A stretch of DNA of 64,000 nucleotides from the NCBI RefSeq assembly GCF_054482525.1, contig NZ_CM137006.1, one strand, 5' to 3'. Numbering within the stretch: position 1 is the stretch's first letter; each line of letters begins with the position of its first letter. This document shows positions 2 through 43,822 of the stretch, one piece after another. The notes below the pieces were generated by a model. It made no database searches. It had not been told where the DNA came from and saw only the letters and a list, made by a program, of their open reading frames with translations. A program made the position numbers and the translations under genes.

Positions 2-1351
2 GTTGGCATTCTGGGGGCACTGAAAGCCGCAGGTGGACTGTGGTTTGGCTGGAGTGGCGAAACAGGGAATGAGGATCAGCCGCTAAAAAAGGTGAAAAAG
101 GGTAACATTACGTGGGCCTCTTTTAACCTCAGCGAACAGGACCTTGACGAATACTACAACCAATTCTCCAATGCCGTTCTCTGGCCCGCTTTTCATTATC
201 GGCTCGATCTGGTGCAATTTCAGCGTCCTGCCTGGGACGGCTATCTACGCGTAAATGCGTTGCTGGCAGATAAATTACTGCCGCTGTTGCAAGACGATGA
301 CATTATCTGGATCCACGATTATCACCTGTTGCCCTTTGCGCATGAATTACGCAAACGTGGGGTGAATAATCGCATTGGTTTCTTTTTGCATATTCCTTTC
401 CCGACACCGGAAATCTTCAACGCGCTGCCGACATATGACACCTTGCTTGAACAGCTTTGTGATTATGATTTGCTGGGTTTCCAGACAGAAAACGATCGTC
501 TGGCGTTCCTGGATTGCCTTTCTAACCTGACCCGCGTCACGACGCGTAGCGCAAAAAGCCATACGGCGTGGGGCAAAGCGTTTCGAACGGAAGTTTACCC
601 GATCGGCATTGAACCGAAAGAAATAGCGAAACAGGCTGCCGGACCACTGCCGCCAAAACTGGCGCAACTTAAAGCGGAACTGAAAAACGTACAAAATATC
701 TTTTCTGTCGAACGGCTGGATTATTCCAAAGGTTTGCCGGAGCGTTTTCTCGCCTATGAAGCGTTGCTGGAAAAATATCCGCAGCATCATGGTAAAATTC
801 GTTATACCCAGATTGCACCAACGTCGCGTGGTGATGTGCAAGCCTATCAGGATATTCGTCATCAGCTCGAAAATGAAGCTGGACGAATTAATGGTAAATA
901 CGGGCAATTAGGCTGGACGCCGCTTTATTATTTGAATCAGCATTTTGACCGTAAATTACTGATGAAAATATTCCGCTACTCTGACGTGGGCTTAGTGACG
1001 CCACTGCGTGACGGGATGAACCTGGTAGCAAAAGAGTATGTTGCCGCTCAGGACCCAGCCAACCCGGGCGTTCTTGTTCTTTCGCAATTTGCGGGAGCGG
1101 CAAACGAGTTAACGTCGGCGTTAATTGTTAACCTCTATGATCGTGACGAAGTTGCAGCTGCGCTGGATCGTGCATTGACTATGTCGCTGGCGGAACGTAT
1201 TTCCCGTCATGCAGAAATGCTGGACGTTATCGTGAAAAACGATATTAACCACTGGCAGGAGTGCTTCATTAGCGACCTAAAGCAGATAGTTCCGCGAAGC
1301 GCGGAAAGCCAGCAGCGCGATAAAGTTGCTACCTTTCCTAAGCTTGCGTAA
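2..1351 (+). CDS. otsA: trehalose-6-phosphate synthase OtsA, 5'-truncated by window start
   Basis: ORF 92..1351 translation matches OtsA; reading frame is open back to position 2 (VGILGALKAAGGLWFGWSGETG...), so the gene starts upstream of the window. Confidence 0.93.
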   Translation, partial: VGILGALKAAGGLWFGWSGETGNEDQPLKKVKKGNITWASFNLSEQDLDEYYNQFSNAVLWPAFHYRLDLVQFQRPAWDGYLRVNALLADKLLPLLQDDDIIWIHDYHLLPFAHELRKRGVNNRIGFFLHIPFPTPEIFNALPTYDTLLEQLCDYDLLGFQTENDRLAFLDCLSNLTRVTTRSAKSHTAWGKAFRTEVYPIGIEPKEIAKQAAGPLPPKLAQLKAELKNVQNIFSVERLDYSKGLPERFLAYEALLEKYPQHHGKIRYTQIAPTSRGDVQAYQDIRHQLENEAGRINGKYGQLGWTPLYYLNQHFDRKLLMKIFRYSDVGLVTPLRDGMNLVAKEYVAAQDPANPGVLVLSQFAGAANELTSALIVNLYDRDEVAAALDRALTMSLAERISRHAEMLDVIVKNDINHWQECFISDLKQIVPRSAESQQRDKVATFPKLA

Positions 1352-2920: not shown

Positions 2921-3499
2921 ATGAGTGAAAAAAGCATTGTTCAGGAAGCGCGGGATATTCAACTGGCAATGGAATTGATCACCCTTGGCGCTCGTTTGCA
3001 GATGCTGGAAAGCGAAACACAGTTAAGTCGCGGACGCCTGATAAAACTCTATAAAGAACTGCGCGGAAGCCCACCGCCGAAAGGCATGCTGCCATTCTCA
3101 ACCGACTGGTTTATGACCTGGGAACAAAACGTTCATGCTTCGATGTTCTGTAACGCATGGCAGTTTTTACTGAAAACCGGCTTGTGTAATGGCGTCGATG
3201 CGGTGATCAAAGCCTACCGTTTATACCTTGAACAGTGCCCGCAAGCAGAAGAAGGACCGCTGCTGGCATTAACCCGTGCCTGGACATTGGTGCGGTTTGT
3301 TGAAAGTGGATTACTGCAACTTTCCAGCTGCAACTGCTGCGGCGGCAATTTTATTACCCACGCTCACCAGCCTGTTGGCAGCTTTGCCTGCAGCTTATGT
3401 CAGCCGCCATCCCGGGCAGTAAAAAGACGTAAACTTTCCCAGAATCCTGCCGATATTATCCCACAACTGCTGGATGAACAGAGAGTACAGGCTGTTTAA
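2921..3499 (+). CDS. flhC: flagellar master regulator FlhC
   Basis: 192-aa ORF matching FlhC, with Cys-rich C-terminal region; 2 bp after flhD. Confidence 0.95.
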
Positions 3500-4513: not shown

Positions 4514-7405
<2,892 letters not shown>

Positions 7406-7425
7406 ATGAGTAAAAAGGTAACAAT

Positions 7426-7929
7426 ATGACCGGTATGACGAATGTAACAAAGCTGGCCAGCGAGCCGTCAGGCCAGGAATTTCTGGTATTTACCCTTGGT
7501 GATGAAGAGTACGGAATTGATATCCTGAAAGTGCAGGAGATCCGTGGCTACGATCAGGTAACACGGATTGCGAACACGCCAGCGTTTATCAAAGGCGTCA
7601 CGAATCTGCGCGGCGTTATTGTGCCGATTGTCGACTTACGAATTAAGTTCAGCCAGGTGGATGTGGACTATAACGACAACACGGTAGTTATCGTCCTGAA
7701 TTTCGGACAGCGGGTGGTCGGCATCGTGGTTGACGGCGTTTCAGACGTGCTTTCATTGACGGCGGAGCAAATTCGTCCGGCACCGGAATTTGCCGTGACG
7801 CTTTCAACAGAATATCTCACTGGACTGGGCGCACTGGGCGACCGGATGTTGATTCTGGTGAACATCGAAAAACTGCTGAACAGCGAAGAGATGGCGCTGT
7901 TAGATAGCGCGGCGTCAGAAGTGGCGTAA
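7426..7929 (+). CDS. cheW: chemotaxis coupling protein CheW
   Basis: 167-aa ORF matching CheW. Confidence 0.95.
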
Positions 7930-7955
7930 TTCTCCCGATTTCCTCAATTGCAATG

Positions 7956-7986
7956 AACCCGATGATCTGCGCATCGGGTTTTTTAT
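7956..7986 (+). terminator. rho-independent terminator after cheW
   Basis: stem AACCCGATG/CATCGGGTT followed by T-run. Confidence 0.6.
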
Positions 7987-8015
7987 TTCAATTTAGCGGT
8001 AGGTGGCATCTGCAA

Positions 8016-8042
8016 TAAAGTTTCCCCCCTCCTTGCCGATAA
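8016..8042 (+). promoter_or_regulatory. sigma28 (FliA) class III promoter of the tar-tap-cheRBYZ operon
   Basis: TAAAGTTT - 11 nt - GCCGATAA is an exact match to the sigma28 consensus, about 30 bp upstream of the tar ATG. Confidence 0.8.
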
Positions 8043-8073
8043 CGAGATCAACTTGTTTTCAGGAAGGTGCCTT

Positions 8074-9735
8074 ATGATTAACCGTATCCGCGTAGTCACG
8101 CTGTTGGTAATGGTGCTGGGGGTATTCGCACTGTTACCGCTTATTTCCGGCAGTCTGTTTTTTTCTTCCCTTCACCATAGCCAGAAGAGCTTTGTGGTTT
8201 CCAATCAATTACGGGAACAGCAGGGCGAGCTGACGTCAACCTGGGATTTAATGCTGCAAACGCGCATTAACCTGAGTCGTTCAGCGGTACGGATGATGAT
8301 GGATTCCTCAAATCAACAAAGTAACGCCAAAGTTGAATTACTCGATAGCGCCAGGAAAACATTGGCCCAGGCAGCGACGCATTATAAAAAATTCAAAAGC
8401 ATGGCACCGTTACCTGAAATGGTCGCTACCAGTCGTAATATTGATGAAAAATATAAAAACTATCACACAGCGTTAACTGAACTGATTGATTATCTTGATT
8501 ATGGCAATACTGGAGCTTATTTCGCTCAGCCAACCCAGGGAATGCAAAATGCAATGGGCGAAGCGTTTGCTCAGTACGCCCTCAGCAGTGAAAAACTGTA
8601 TCGCGATATCGTCACTGACAACGCAGATGATTACCGATTTGCCCAGTGGCAACTGGCGGTTATCGCGCTGGTGGTGGTATTGATTCTGCTGGTGGCGTGG
8701 TACGGCATTCGCCGTATGTTGCTTACACCGCTGGCAAAAATTATTGCTCACATTCGCGAAATCGCCAGTGGTAACCTGGCGAATACCCTGACCATTGACG
8801 GGCGCAGTGAAATGGGCGACCTGGCGCAGAGCGTTTCACATATGCAACGCTCTTTGACTGACACCGTCACTCATGTGCGTGAAGGTTCAGATGCCATCTA
8901 TGCCGGTACCCGTGAAATTGCGGCGGGCAACACCGATCTTTCCTCCCGTACTGAACAGCAGGCATCTGCGCTGGAAGAAACTGCCGCCAGCATGGAGCAG
9001 CTCACCGCGACAGTGAAGCAAAACGCCGATAACGCCCGCCAGGCCTCGCAACTGGCGCAAAGTGCCTCCGATACTGCCCAGCATGGCGGAAAAGTAGTGG
9101 ATGGTGTAGTGAAAACGATGCATGAGATCGCCGATAGTTCGAAGAAAATTGCCGACATTATCAGCGTTATCGATGGTATTGCCTTCCAGACTAATATCCT
9201 CGCGTTGAATGCCGCTGTTGAAGCCGCGCGTGCGGGTGAACAGGGCCGTGGTTTTGCCGTGGTGGCGGGCGAAGTGCGTAATCTTGCCAGTCGCAGCGCC
9301 CAGGCGGCAAAAGAGATCAAAGCCCTCATTGAAGACTCCGTCTCGCGCGTTGATACCGGTTCGGTGCTGGTCGAAAGCGCCGGGGAAACAATGAACAATA
9401 TCGTCAATGCTGTCACTCGCGTGACTGACATTATGGGCGAGATTGCATCGGCATCGGATGAACAGAGCCGTGGCATCGATCAAGTCGCATTGGCGGTTTC
9501 GGAAATGGATCGCGTCACGCAACAGAACGCATCGCTGGTGCAGGAATCAGCTGCCGCCGCAGCTGCGCTGGAAGAACAGGCCAGTCGTTTAACGCAAGCG
9601 GTTTCCGCGTTCCGTCTGGCAGCCAGCCCACTCACCAATAAACCGCAAACACCATCCCGTCCTGCCAGTGAGCAACCACCGGCACAGCCACGACTGCGAA
9701 TTACTGAACAAGATCCAAACTGGGAAACATTTTGA
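8074..9735 (+). CDS. tar: methyl-accepting chemotaxis protein II (aspartate/maltose receptor)
   Basis: ORF 8053..9735; the Tar N-terminus [11 protein letters not shown] starts at ATG 8074 giving 553 aa; C-terminal NWETF pentapeptide present. Confidence 0.93.
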
Positions 9736-9780
9736 CGAGTATCTACTAACGCGGTCATTGCCGCCTGATGGGGAGCGTTG

Positions 9781-11382
9781 ATGTTTAATCGTATTCGAAT
9801 TTCGACCACGCTGTTTTTAATTTTGATTCTCTGCGGGATCTTGCAGATTGGCAGTAACGGCATGTCTTTTTGGGCATTTCGCGACGATTTGCAACGACTG
9901 AATCAGGTCGAGCAGAGCAATCAGCAACGTGCGGCATTAGCGCAAACTCGGGCGGTAATGTTACAGGCCAGTACCGCGCTGAACAAAGCGGGCACTCTGA
10001 CGGCGCTTAGCTATCCGGCGGATGACATTAAAACGTTGATGACGACGGCGCGCGCCAGTCTGACGCAATCCACCACGCTGTTTAAAAGTTTTATGGCGAT
10101 GACTGCGGGCAACGAGCACGTCAGGGCCTTTCAAAAAGAGACGGAGAAAAGTTTTGCCCGCTGGCACAACGATCTCGAACATCAGGCGACCTGGCTTGAA
10201 AGTAATCAACTTTCGGATTTCCTCACTGCGCCGGTGCAGGAATCACAGAATGCGTTTGACGTTAACTTTGAGGCCTGGCAGCTGGAGATCAACCATGTGC
10301 TGGAAACTGCCAGTGCGCAAAGCCAGCGTAACTATCACATTTCGGCGCTGGTGTTTATCAGCATGATTATTGTTGCAGCGCTCTACATCAGCAGTGCGCT
10401 GTGGTGGACGCGCAAGATGATTGTTCAACCACTGGCCATCATCGGTAGCCATTTTGACAGCATTGCTGCGGGTAATCTGGCGCGTCCGATTGCGGTGTAT
10501 GGTCGCAATGAGATCACCGCCATTTTTGCCAGTCTGAAAACCATGCAGCAGGCTTTGCGTGGGACGGTAAGTGATGTGCGTAAGGGAAGCCAGGAGATGC
10601 ACATTGGTATCGCGGAGATTGTCGCAGGCAATAACGATCTCTCAAGTCGTACCGAACAGCAGGCGGCATCGCTGGCACAAACGGCCGCCAGTATGGAGCA
10701 ATTAACCGCCACGGTAGGGCAAAACGCCGATAACGCGCGCCAGGCGTCGGAACTGGCAAAAAATGCCGCGACAACGGCGCAGGCGGGCGGTGTTCAGGTC
10801 AGTACCATGACTCACACCATGCAGGAGATCGCCACCAGCTCGCAAAAAATTGGCGACATTATCAGCGTTATCGACGGCATTGCTTTCCAGACCAATATTC
10901 TGGCCCTGAATGCGGCAGTGGAAGCGGCTCGCGCCGGAGAGCAGGGGCGTGGTTTTGCGGTAGTGGCAGGTGAAGTGCGCAATCTTGCCAGCCGTAGCGC
11001 GCAGGCAGCAAAAGAGATCAAAGGGCTGATCGAAGAGTCAGTCAATCGTGTCCAGCAGGGTTCGAAACTGGTGAATAACGCCGCCGCGACCATGACTGAT
11101 ATTGTCAGTTCGGTGACCCGCGTGAACGACATTATGGGAGAAATTGCTTCGGCCTCGGAAGAACAACGGCGGGGGATTGAGCAGGTTGCGCAGGTTGTCA
11201 GCCAGATGGATCAGGTGACACAGCAGAACGCCTCCCTGGTAGAAGAAGCGGCGGTGGCAACGGAACAACTGGCGAATCAGGCCGACCATCTTTCTTCGCG
11301 CGTGGCGGTATTTACCCTTGAAGAACATGAAGTAGCACGACATGAGTCGGCGCAGTTACAAATTGCGCCAGTGGTATCCTGA
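9781..11382 (+). CDS. tap: methyl-accepting chemotaxis protein IV (dipeptide/pyrimidine receptor)
   Basis: 533-aa ORF from ATG 9781 (MFNRIRISTTLF); paralog of tar; lacks the NWETF tail. Confidence 0.92.
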   Translation: MFNRIRISTTLFLILILCGILQIGSNGMSFWAFRDDLQRLNQVEQSNQQRAALAQTRAVMLQASTALNKAGTLTALSYPADDIKTLMTTARASLTQSTTLFKSFMAMTAGNEHVRAFQKETEKSFARWHNDLEHQATWLESNQLSDFLTAPVQESQNAFDVNFEAWQLEINHVLETASAQSQRNYHISALVFISMIIVAALYISSALWWTRKMIVQPLAIIGSHFDSIAAGNLARPIAVYGRNEITAIFASLKTMQQALRGTVSDVRKGSQEMHIGIAEIVAGNNDLSSRTEQQAASLAQTAASMEQLTATVGQNADNARQASELAKNAATTAQAGGVQVSTMTHTMQEIATSSQKIGDIISVIDGIAFQTNILALNAAVEAARAGEQGRGFAVVAGEVRNLASRSAQAAKEIKGLIEESVNRVQQGSKLVNNAAATMTDIVSSVTRVNDIMGEIASASEEQRRGIEQVAQVVSQMDQVTQQNASLVEEAAVATEQLANQADHLSSRVAVFTLEEHEVARHESAQLQIAPVVS

Positions 11383-11400
11383 AGTGATTGAGAAGGCGCT

Positions 11401-12261
11401 ATGACTTCATCTCTGCCCTGTGGGCAAACGTCTTTATTGTTACAGATGACCGAGCGCCTGGCGCTTTCCGACGCGCATTTTCGGCGGATAAGTCAATTGA
11501 TCTATCAACGAGCCGGGATCGTTCTGGCTGACCATAAACGCGACATGGTTTACAACCGACTGGTTCGTCGTTTGCGTTCGCTGGGACTGACGGATTTCGG
11601 CCATTACTTGAACTTGCTGGAATCTAACCAGCACAGCGGTGAGTGGCAGGCGTTTATCAATTCGCTGACCACGAATCTGACGGCATTTTTCCGTGAGGCG
11701 CATCATTTTCCTCTGCTCGCGGATCACGCACGTCGCCGTTCTGGCGAGTATCGCGTATGGAGCGCGGCGGCTTCGACCGGCGAAGAGCCGTACAGCATTG
11801 CGATGACGCTGGCTGACACATTGGGCACCGTGCCCGGACGCTGGAAAGTGTTTGCCAGTGATATCGACACCGAAGTGCTGGAAAAAGCCAGAAGCGGTAT
11901 TTATCGCCATGAAGAGTTGAAAAACCTGACGCCGCAGCAACTGCAACGGTATTTCATGCGAGGGACGGGACCGCATGAAGGGCTGGTACGCGTGCGTCAG
12001 GAGCTGGCGAACTATGTTGATTTTGCCCCGCTGAATTTACTGGCGAAACAGTACACCGTGCCGGGGCCGTTTGATGCGATCTTCTGTCGTAACGTCATGA
12101 TCTACTTCGATCAAACTACCCAGCAGGAGATTTTGCGCCGCTTTGTTCCGCTCCTTAAACCCGACGGATTGCTGTTTGCGGGTCACTCTGAAAACTTTAG
12201 CCACCTTGAGCGCCGCTTCACGCTGCGTGGTCAGACGGTGTATGCGCTAAGTAAGGATTAA
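11401..12261 (+). CDS. cheR: chemotaxis protein methyltransferase CheR
   Basis: 286-aa ORF matching CheR. Confidence 0.95.
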
Positions 12262-12263
12262 CG

Positions 12264-13717
<1,454 letters not shown>

Positions 13718-13727
13718 GGATGCGACT

Positions 13728-14372
13728 ATGATGCAACCATCAATCAAACCTGCTGACGAGCATTCAGCTGGCGATATCATTGCGCGCATCGGCAGCCTGA
13801 CGCGTATGCTGCGCGACAGTTTGCGGGAACTGGGACTGGATCAGGCCATTGCGGAAGCGGCGGAAGCCATCCCCGATGCGCGCGATCGTTTGTACTATGT
13901 TGTGCAGATGACCGCCCAGGCTGCGGAGCGGGCGCTGAACAGTGTTGAGGCGTCACAACCGCATCAGGATCAAATGGAGAAATCAGCAAAAGCGTTAACC
14001 CAACGTTGGGATGACTGGTTTGCCGATCCGATTGATCTTGCCGACGCCCGTGAATTGGTAACAGACACGCGGCAATTTCTGGCAGATGTACCCGCGCATA
14101 CCAGCTTTACAAACGCGCAACTGCTGGAAATCATGATGGCGCAGGATTTTCAGGATCTCACCGGACAGGTTATTAAGCGGATGATGGATGTCATTCAGGA
14201 GATCGAACGCCAGTTGTTGATGGTGCTGTTGGAAAACATCCCGGAACAGGAGTCGCGTCCAAAACGTGAAAACCAGAGTTTGCTTAATGGACCTCAGGTC
14301 GATACCAGCAAAGCCGGTGTGGTAGCCAGTCAGGATCAGGTGGACGATTTGTTGGATAGTCTTGGATTTTGA
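13728..14372 (+). CDS. cheZ: CheY-P phosphatase CheZ
   Basis: ORF 13698..14372; the CheZ N-terminus [12 protein letters not shown] starts at ATG 13728 giving 214 aa. Confidence 0.93.
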
Positions 14373-33177: not shown

Positions 33178-33780
33178 TTATACCGCCTCGGTCAGTTCCG
33201 GCTGAGGCGTTTCCACTCCCTCCGCATGAATCAACACCAAACCCGGATGATGCCACAAACTGGCTGGCGTGACGGTTTTACGCTCCCACGGAATAGAACC
33301 TAAGAACCAGAATTTCCAGAAAGTGAGTTTTGCATTCGGATTGCTATTTAACAATTCTCCAAACGTCTCTATTTCACCCACCGGAATACATAGCGCCTTT
33401 TTATAAATATCAAAAACAAATTTTGAACAGAACTGGCGCGAAGATTCGTATTTAAAACCGGTGTGGTAAAGTTTGCGTAGCCGGGAGGGAACCTGTTCAA
33501 CAATTCGTTGTTTTTGTTGTTCTGTAAGCCCGGCGTCTAATCGCTTTATAGCATAGCGTTGATTAGAAGAACGTTTAATAAAACGAGATAGCGTGGTGAT
33601 GGTTGAAAGGGGAACCCGGCTTTCTGCAACCATGAAGTCTTCACCGTTATGACCGATAATGATCCCGACGTGATTACTCCAGCAATTTGATGCAGCTGAT
33701 ATTTGACCAAATAAGGCAGCACCTATACATGTAAAGACGATATCACCAATTTCATATTCAGCAGGATAATTAATATTCAC
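33178..33780 (-). CDS. yebB: YebB, conserved protein of unknown function
   Basis: 200-aa ORF between ruvC and ruvA on the opposite strand, as in K-12. Confidence 0.8.
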
Positions 33781-40840: not shown

Positions 40841-41449
40841 GCCGTGTGATAAGTTCAAGTTTGCTTCAGAAGATTCGAAATCTGTTGAACTATCATTGAA
40901 CTGTAGGCCGGATGAGGCGTTTTGAACTGCACCCCAAATGTTGGACATAATCTGACATCTGAAGGTGCAGTTTATGAAACATTCATTTGAAGTAAAACTT
41001 GCCGCTGTAAATCACTACCTGGCTGGTCATGCAGGCATCATTTCTACGGCAAAACTCTTTCAACTTTCTCACACCAGCCTCTCACACTGGATTAATCTTT
41101 TTCTTCTTCACGGTCCTCGGGCACTGGATTGCAGACACAAGCGTAGCTATTCTCCTGAAGATAAACTTTGCGTGGTTCTTTATGCTCTCGGGCATTCTGA
41201 GTCTCTACCCCGGGTAGCTGCCCGGTTTAACATTCCCAGCCACAACACGGTTAAAAACTGGATAAAAGGCTACCGCAAATCTGGTAATGAGGCCTTTATC
41301 AGGCGCAGGAAGGAGAAAAGCATGACCCGTTCTGATGATACCCATGAAAACGAGGCAAACATGACGCCGGAAGAGATGAAGAATGAGCTGCGTTATCTTC
41401 GCGCAGAAAATGCATATCTGAAAGCCATGCAGGAGCATCTCCTGGAAAA

Positions 41450-42354
<905 letters not shown>

Positions 42355-42379
42355 GTTTTCGCCGCATCCGGCAACGTAC

Positions 42380-43822
42380 TTACTCTACCGTTAAAATACG
42401 CGTGGTATTAGTAGAACCCACGGTACTCATCACGTCGCCCTGGGTGACAATCACCAGGTCACCAGACATCAAGTAACCTTTATCGCGCAGCAGATTAACC
42501 GCTTCGCTGGCAGCTGCTACGCCGTCATTAGCGCTATCAAAGTGCACCGGCGTAACGCCGCGATAGAGAGCAGTCAGGTTCAGCGTACGTTCATGGCGTG
42601 ACATGGCGAAAATTGGCAGACCAGAGCTGATACGGGAGGTCATCAGCGCCGTACGACCCGATTCGGTCATGGTGATGATCGCCGTAACGCCTTTCAGGTG
42701 GTTAGCCGCGTACATTGCTGACATGGCGATAGCTTCTTCCACATTGTCGAACTGAACGTCCAGACGGTGTTTAGAAACGTTGATGCTCGGGATTTTTTCC
42801 GCACCCAGGCAAACGCGCGCCATGGCTGCAACAGTTTCTGAAGGATACTGACCAGCAGCAGTTTCTGCAGAAAGCATCACAGCGTCAGTACCATCCAGAA
42901 CGGCGTTTGCTACGTCCATGACTTCTGCACGCGTCGGCATCGGGTTAGTAATCATTGACTCCATCATCTGGGTCGCCGTGATTACTGCGCGGTTAAGCTG
43001 ACGCGCACGACGGATCAACGCTTTCTGAATGCCGACCAGTTCCGGGTCGCCAATTTCCACACCGAGGTCGCCACGTGCAACCATTACCACGTCAGAGGCG
43101 AGGATGATGTCATCCATTGCATCCTGGCTGCAAACGGCTTCCGCACGTTCAACCTTGGCAACAATTTTCGCATCACAGCCTGCATCGCGTGCCAGGCGAC
43201 GGGCATAGTTCAGATCTTCGCCGCAGCGTGGGAAGGAGACAGCCAGGTAATCTACGCCAATTAACGCCGCAGTCTTAATGTCTGCTTTGTCTTTTTCGGT
43301 CAGCGCTTCAGCCGACAAACCGCCGCCAAGTTTGTTGATACCTTTATTGTTGGAGAGGGGACCACCGACGGTCACTTCGGTGAACACTTTCATGCCCTGA
43401 ACTTCCAGTACTTTTAACTGAACGCGACCATCGTCCAGCAGCAGGATGTCACCAGGCACGACGTCAGCAGGCAGGCCTTTGTAGTCGATACCGACTTTTT
43501 CTTTGTCGCCTTCACCTTTACCCAGGTTGGCGTCGAGCAGGAATTTATCCCCAATATTGAGGAAAACTTTGCCTTCTTTAAAGGTGGATACACGGATTTT
43601 GGGCCCCTGGAGGTCACCCAGAATAGCCACATGACGCCCCAGTTTTGCGGCAATCTCACGAACTTTATCCGCGCGCATTTTGTGATCTTCAGGCGAGCCG
43701 TGAGAAAAGTTCATACGTACAACGTTTGCACCCGCTGCGATAACTTTTTCAAGGTTATTATCGCGATCTGTTGCTGGGCCTAACGTGGTAACGATTTTAG
43801 TTCTGCGAAGCCTTCTGGACAT
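42380..43822 (-). CDS. pykA: pyruvate kinase II
   Basis: ORF 42380..43963; the PykA N-terminus [19 protein letters not shown] starts at 43822 (480 aa); the 47 extra upstream codons are not part of the gene. Confidence 0.93.

Follow-up and report, generated by a model that had tools for sequence, protein, structure and literature searches.

The sigma28 promoter element ahead of tar-tap-cheRBYZ in an Escherichia coli chromosome and its likeness to the described Ptar

Biochemists, structural biologists and synthetic biologists already use Ptar, the promoter of the tar-tap-cheRBYZ operon, as the reference sigma28 promoter. In PMC4183435 the operon, also called the 'meche' operon, is one of six accepted class 3 operons. 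The sigma28 consensus is given as TAAAGTTT-n11-GCCGATAA (PMC2859248). In K-12, the FliA ChIP-seq site for tar-tap-cheRBYZ is the 28-mer TAAAGTTTCCCCCCTCCTTGCCGATAAC, with a fold-above-threshold of 57 (Fitzgerald et al. 2014, PMC4183435). The ChIP-seq peak is centred 24 bp downstream of the centre of the motif, an offset expected of holoenzyme, and tar expression is 251 in motile MG1655 compared with 0 when fliA is deleted (PMC4183435). For in vitro transcription with sigma28, Ptar is the standard template, and its transcripts need sigma28 in vivo as well as in vitro (PMC4604602). The same paper prints the promoter as TAAAGTTTcccccctccttGCCGATAAcgagatcA, which ends in ...GCCGATAAcgagatcA, with the final A as +1.

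The promoter has also been used in structural work, where a cryo-EM scaffold of sigma28 transcribing complexes was built from it (there called tarp; bioRxiv 10.1101/2020.01.02.893370). In that study C-13 and G-12 are the specificity bases, and mutating either in tarp greatly lowers promoter activity. C-26 and C-25 are contacted by the zinc-binding domain of the RNA polymerase beta-prime subunit, and sigma region 4 makes contacts at -30 and -31 via K208. For well-characterised FliA promoters, dRNA-seq places transcription starts 18-22 bp from the motif centre (2017 Wade-lab preprint).

The sequence compared with these systems here is a stretch of 64,000 nucleotides, referred to below as the window. 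The element at 8016-8042 is almost certainly Ptar, the class 3 FliA promoter of the E. coli tar-tap-cheRBYZ operon. The presence of the motif, its uniqueness, its context and its phylogenetic footprint are direct observations of this work.

The element, its start site and its genes

The region 7400-8700 is E. coli chromosome. It is 100% identical to strain PCN033, and the stretch is found in 5,386 of 5,426 complete genomes. In the matching record the annotated gene order is otsBA, uspC, flhDC, motAB-cheAW, tar-tap-cheRBYZ, flhBA, and from flhD on all genes have the orientation of the window. The cheW stop codon occupies 7927-7929 and the tar ATG lies at 8074, with a cheW-tar spacer of 144 bp. 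The tar ATG and the coordinates of the operon genes come from the annotation of the strain that is 100% identical over the stretch. The features of the region, all on the plus strand, are:

7955-7991 (stem-loop 7955-7981), plus strand: terminator-like hairpin followed by a T-run; 10-bp stem, 7-nt loop, tail TTTATTTCAA
8016-8023 (-34 to -27, with +1 at 8050), plus strand: -35 element TAAAGTTT, recognised by sigma28 region 4
8024-8034 (-26 to -16), plus strand: C-rich 11-nt spacer CCCCCCTCCTT, its length fixed and its sequence mostly free
8035-8042 (-15 to -8), plus strand: -10 element GCCGATAA, an 'extended -10' GC and then the core CGATAA
8050, plus strand: transcription start of the tar-tap-cheRBYZ mRNA, an A (+1), from the published Ptar sequence, mapped in K-12
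8050-8073, plus strand: 24-nt 5' leader with the Shine-Dalgarno sequence AGGAAGG at 8061-8067, 6 nt before the ATG
8074-14372, plus strand: tar-tap-cheRBYZ transcription unit, from the annotation of the identical strain
8074-9735, plus strand: tar
9781-11382, plus strand: tap
11401-12261, plus strand: cheR
12264-13313, plus strand: cheB
13328-13717, plus strand: cheY
13728-14372, plus strand: cheZ

An earlier note on this DNA had claimed an exact TAAAGTTT-N11-GCCGATAA at 8016-8042, and the two octamers are indeed there on the plus strand, matching at 16 of 16 positions. In a pattern search of both strands this is the sole match without a mismatch in the 64 kb window. The chance expectation for an exact 16/16 match is about 3e-5 in 2 x 64 kb and about 3e-8 in the 144-nt cheW-tar spacer alone. 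When up to three mismatches are allowed the window contains five sigma28-like matches, as against 0.34 in dinucleotide-preserving shuffles (n = 100), none of which reached five. Motif and tar share a strand, with 31 nt between the -10 element and the tar ATG.

Every sequence-level feature that defines a class 3 sigma28 promoter is present at 8016-8042. All eight bases agree in the -35 octamer at 8016-8023, as do all eight in the -10 octamer at 8035-8042, C-13 (8037) and G-12 (8038) included. The spacer at 8024-8034 has the required 11 bp, the element faces a chemotaxis gene, tar, at promoter distance, and the elements are conserved over their flanks (seven genera; nine E. coli strains). The functional features, FliA binding and FliA dependence, are provided by the literature for the identical K-12 sequence. 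The earlier note had also called the element a FliA promoter, a claim borne out by the 28-mer, which is the K-12 ChIP-seq site itself, and by the sigma28 requirement of Ptar transcripts.

A comparison with mapped tar starts had been suggested as a check. The +1 A of PMC4604602 falls on 8050, 8 nt past the -10 octamer, which gives the 24-nt leader and agrees with the position of the element. This numbering puts C-13, G-12, C-26 and C-25 on C8037, G8038, C8024 and C8025, and -30 and -31 on G8020 and A8019 (template-strand partners C and T), in agreement with the bases reported in the structural study. The distance from the motif centre to 8050 is 20.5 bp, within the 18-22 bp range. The start at 8050 is thus taken from the Ptar literature and the general motif-to-start rule; the available parts of the supplementary tables of three genome-wide start or sigma-factor studies (PMC4782308, Cappable-seq; Kim 2012, PMC3415461; Cho 2014, PMC3923258) gave no match to the tar +1 (1970740 in NC_000913.2; 1972715 in NC_000913.3). 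The strains of those three studies may be poorly motile. Published experiments on an identical sequence cover the binding of FliA, the dependence on it, the position of +1, the base contacts and the need for C-13/G-12 and the -35 element, and by extension this strain should behave like K-12 at Ptar.

The operon assigned to the promoter by the earlier note is also as described, with six co-oriented genes that correspond to the 'meche' operon of the literature. From tar to cheZ the intergenic gaps are 45, 18, 2, 14 and 10 nt, the reading frames are all intact, and 201 nt separate cheZ from flhB. The pattern search detected no other sigma28-like site with three or fewer mismatches inside tar-tap-cheRBYZ, where the numbers of sigma70-like and terminator-like matches do not exceed those expected from shuffles.

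The hairpin at 7955-7981 lies 34 nt upstream of the motif. It folds at -16.1 kcal/mol (z = -4.2; none of 200 shuffles folds equally well), and it is kept in all eight aligned E. coli strains that are free of an IS200 insertion. With its T-run it is probably the intrinsic terminator of the motAB-cheAW operon. As a putative terminator it would keep upstream transcription from reaching the tar promoter.

Other sigma28-like sites occur in the window. That at 3430-3456 (plus strand), TAAACTTTCCCAGAATCCTGCCGATAT, has two mismatches to the consensus and lies inside the 3' end of flhC (2921-3499), 170 nt before motA (3626). It is the known motAB-cheAW class 3 promoter, with a ChIP-seq fold-above-threshold of 101 (PMC4183435), and the motA promoter is described as the most conserved FliA promoter in a published conservation survey. 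The site at 196-222 (minus strand), TGAAATTGCACCAGATCGAGCCGATAA, has three mismatches and is antisense inside otsA (92-1351). An identical sequence is a weak intragenic FliA ChIP-seq site in K-12 (fold-above-threshold 2), with otsA expression unchanged (PMC4183435). Two more matches, 33633-33659 (plus strand) and 43545-43571 (minus strand), were rejected as promoters, since both have three mismatches, are intragenic, are absent from the K-12 ChIP-seq list and occur at chance frequency. One lies within yebB in antisense orientation; the other, within pykA and in sense orientation, does not have C-14 and C-13. Near pykA there is also a difference of another kind. At about 40907-42392, between lpxM and pykA, the window carries a 1,436-bp segment that is absent from the otherwise near-identical PCN033. 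It contains two plus-strand open reading frames, one of 176 aa (part of a helix-turn-helix transposase) and one of 240 aa (rve integrase core). The segment corresponds to IS3-family IS1397, copies of which are found in many E. coli genomes, in some at the same pykA-proximal site.

The place of tar among FliA sites can be given in numbers. A consensus re-derived from the 52 K-12 FliA ChIP-seq sites of PMC4183435, with the majority base taken at each position, reads TAAAG(T/A)TT-N11-GCCGATAA. Among the 52 mapped sites tar is the only one with no mismatch to the consensus; flgM, tsr and yhjH each have one. It is also first in leave-one-out weight-matrix score (26.4 bits), so the match is independent of tar's own contribution to the consensus. 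The highest FliA occupancy does not go with the perfect consensus, as fold-above-threshold values are 110 for fliC, 101 for motA, 94 for tsr and 91 for fliA versus 57 for tar (PMC4183435). The least informative consensus position is -27, where 17 of the 52 sites have T and 13 have C. The spacer base directly before GCCGATAA, T at -16 (8034), is the majority base there (26 of 52 sites).

Conservation within E. coli and across genera

The cheW-tar spacer varies among E. coli genomes more than might be expected. Over its 144 bp, identity to the window reaches 99% or more in only 23 genomes and lies between 90 and 95% in 510. Nine strains were aligned across this range of identity: K-12, UPEC 536, Nissle 1917, O111:H8, O157:H7, RM10466, 7/2, ETEC4079 and the strain of the window. 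None of the 16 consensus positions varies among the nine. SNPs at 8029 and 8031 are in the spacer between the octamers, those at 7999-8011 are ahead of the -35 element, and those at 8046, 8049 and 8053 fall in the discriminator and the start of the transcribed region. Small as the sample of nine strains is, this is the distribution that would be predicted if the two octamers were under selection. In ETEC4079 the cheW-tar spacer is interrupted by an IS200C where the terminator hairpin would be (equivalent to about 7930-7985 of the window). Some 35 bp separate the insertion from the downstream -35 element, and the sigma28 promoter, the leader and tar are kept unchanged.

Across genera, a search anchored on CheW, with one genome per species, gave 80 Enterobacteriaceae loci. 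In 10 of the 80, tar is present within 1.5 kb downstream of cheW. These loci include three other Escherichia species, Salmonella enterica subsp. diarizonae, Atlantibacter, Cedecea, two Kosakonia and Pluralibacter. With spacers of 10-12 nt allowed, the best sigma28 match in all ten has an 11-nt spacer, at most one mismatch and an end 31-36 nt before the ATG.

The cross-genus footprint, drawn from these ten loci, compares the window with the six non-Escherichia loci in sequences anchored on the motif. Fifteen of the 16 consensus positions are invariant across genera (seven of eight in the -35 octamer, all eight in the -10 octamer) versus 2 of 61 surrounding positions. The surrounding counts are 0 of 30 upstream, 1 of 11 in the spacer (T 8034) and 1 of 20 downstream. 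Variation within the consensus is confined to the last T of TAAAGTTT, at -27. This position is T in the four Escherichia species and C or A in the six loci from five non-Escherichia genera, so the perfect match is specific to Escherichia. Since -27 is the least informative position, the difference between T and C or A there may well be neutral. The first base of the spacer, C at -26 (8024), is C in six of seven genera, and with T invariant at -16 the functional motif may be slightly wider than the two octamers. A leader block, AGGAAGGTG, is common to the window and S. enterica subsp. diarizonae. A published conservation survey and Salmonella FliA ChIP-seq found flagellar FliA promoters to be conserved and bound in Salmonella, which is the same general conclusion as that of the footprint.

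In the other 70 of the 80 species there is no Tar homologue within 1.5 kb downstream of cheW, nor anything else there that resembles the window; these include Citrobacter, Enterobacter, Kluyvera, Leclercia, Lelliottia, Phytobacter and S. enterica subsp. arizonae. The cheW-tar junction is therefore not the ancestral or general arrangement. Two such loci were inspected, those of Enterobacter cloacae and Citrobacter braakii. In both, cheW is followed by a convergent open reading frame of 419 aa, multi-pass membrane and transporter-like, and no sigma28 site with two or fewer mismatches was found downstream of cheW.

These comparisons are the mildly new part of the work, namely a tight footprint across genera and a perfect -35 element that is restricted to Escherichia and differs elsewhere at the least informative position. 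Also new here are the invariance of the octamers in nine diverse E. coli strains and the standing of tar as the sole FliA site with no mismatch and the top leave-one-out score.

Alternative sources of tar transcription

Two other accounts of tar transcription have to be weighed against initiation at the 8016-8042 element. The genes motAB-cheAW are co-oriented with tar and end just 144 bp upstream of it, and transcripts from the FliA-dependent motA promoter might read through into tar. Expression of both motA and tar collapses in a fliA deletion (PMC4183435). As the motA promoter is itself FliA-dependent, the deletion result alone does not tell one promoter from the other. Transcripts that cross an operon border are moreover reported nearby, from tar-cheZ into flhB, in PMC4183435. 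Against this, a strong hairpin with a T-run stands between cheW and the motif, and tar has a ChIP-seq peak of its own, with the offset typical of initiating holoenzyme (PMC4183435). Isolated Ptar is active and sigma28-dependent, both in vitro and from plasmids in vivo (PMC4604602; bioRxiv 10.1101/2020.01.02.893370). The conservation of 15 of 16 positions across genera, in flanks that are not conserved, argues for selection on a promoter, and in ETEC4079 an IS200 separates tar from cheW with the promoter kept intact. Given the hairpin, the ChIP-seq peak at tar itself, the fact that Ptar is active in isolation and the selective conservation, read-through from motA is at most a minor contributor, and it is very improbable as the explanation of tar transcription.

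It is also conceivable that the match is a chance, non-functional FliA-like sequence and that tar is transcribed from a sigma70 promoter or an FlhDC-dependent class 2 element. Many of the 52 FliA-bound E. coli sites have no detectable transcript (PMC4183435), and look-alikes with three mismatches do occur by chance in the window, at 33633 and 43545. Such an origin is hard to reconcile with the minute chance expectation of an exact match in the cheW-tar spacer and with a cross-genus footprint that is confined to the 8016-8042 element. A sigma70-like promoter was looked for on the plus strand from 7300 to 8300 and none was found; a class 2 promoter for tar, which would be FlhDC-activated and sigma70-type, was rejected on this ground. 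In the available literature passages, those of PMC4183435 among them, tar is described solely as a FliA-dependent class 3 operon. There is direct biochemical and genetic evidence for the identical sequence, and the published sigma28-dependent transcription from Ptar in practice refutes a chance origin, which is even less credible than read-through. The FliA promoter at 8016-8042 thus remains the preferred source of tar transcription.

Working of the promoter and comparison with known systems

On the mechanism that fits these data, RNA polymerase carrying FliA (sigma28) binds Ptar with sigma region 4 reading TAAAGTTT and regions 2/3 reading the composite -10 element GCCGATAA. Specificity comes from C-13 and G-12 within GCCGATAA, and the beta-prime zinc-binding domain touches C-26 and C-25. 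Transcription begins at the A at 8050, passes through the 24-nt leader with its strong ribosome-binding site and continues into the six chemotaxis genes. The hairpin at 7955-7981 probably ends the motAB-cheAW transcript, which would leave Ptar as the operon's own start point. FliA is kept inactive by the anti-sigma factor FlgM until the complete hook-basal body exports FlgM. Because FlgM sequesters FliA until export, class 3 promoters such as Ptar fire late in flagellar assembly.

A more speculative reading, and one to which we give little credence, is that the perfect 16/16 match is a derived Escherichia feature and that Ptar is tuned as the most FliA-sensitive class 3 promoter, firing at the lowest level of free FliA. 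In that case a perfect consensus might slow promoter escape or turnover, as would be hinted by the lower occupancy of tar relative to less perfect promoters.

Recognising Ptar in the window adds no new biology. It matters only as annotation, showing where the 'meche' operon begins and confirming an intact class 3 regulatory layout in the window.

The closest described system is Ptar of K-12, and the element is Ptar itself, already known and a textbook case, and not merely a member of its family. The K-12 promoter is identical to the window over 8012-8110, a segment that includes the octamers, the spacer, the discriminator, the +1, the leader and the Shine-Dalgarno sequence, and the flanking genes are the same. 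Over the whole 144-bp cheW-tar spacer the two differ by five SNPs (7953, 7999, 8004, 8005 and 8011), all upstream of the -35 element and none in a recognised promoter element. The tar promoters of S. enterica subsp. diarizonae, Atlantibacter, Cedecea, Kosakonia and Pluralibacter share with the window the -10 octamer, the 11-nt length of the spacer, the T before the -10 and a distance of 31-36 nt to the ATG, but their spacer and flanking sequences are unrelated to those of the window. The other E. coli class 3 promoters (motA, tsr, flgM, yhjH and fliC) have the same bipartite organization, with a TAAAGTTT-like -35 element, an 11-nt spacer and a GCCGATAA-like -10 element. All of them are bound by FliA, and they have one or two mismatches to the consensus compared with none at tar.
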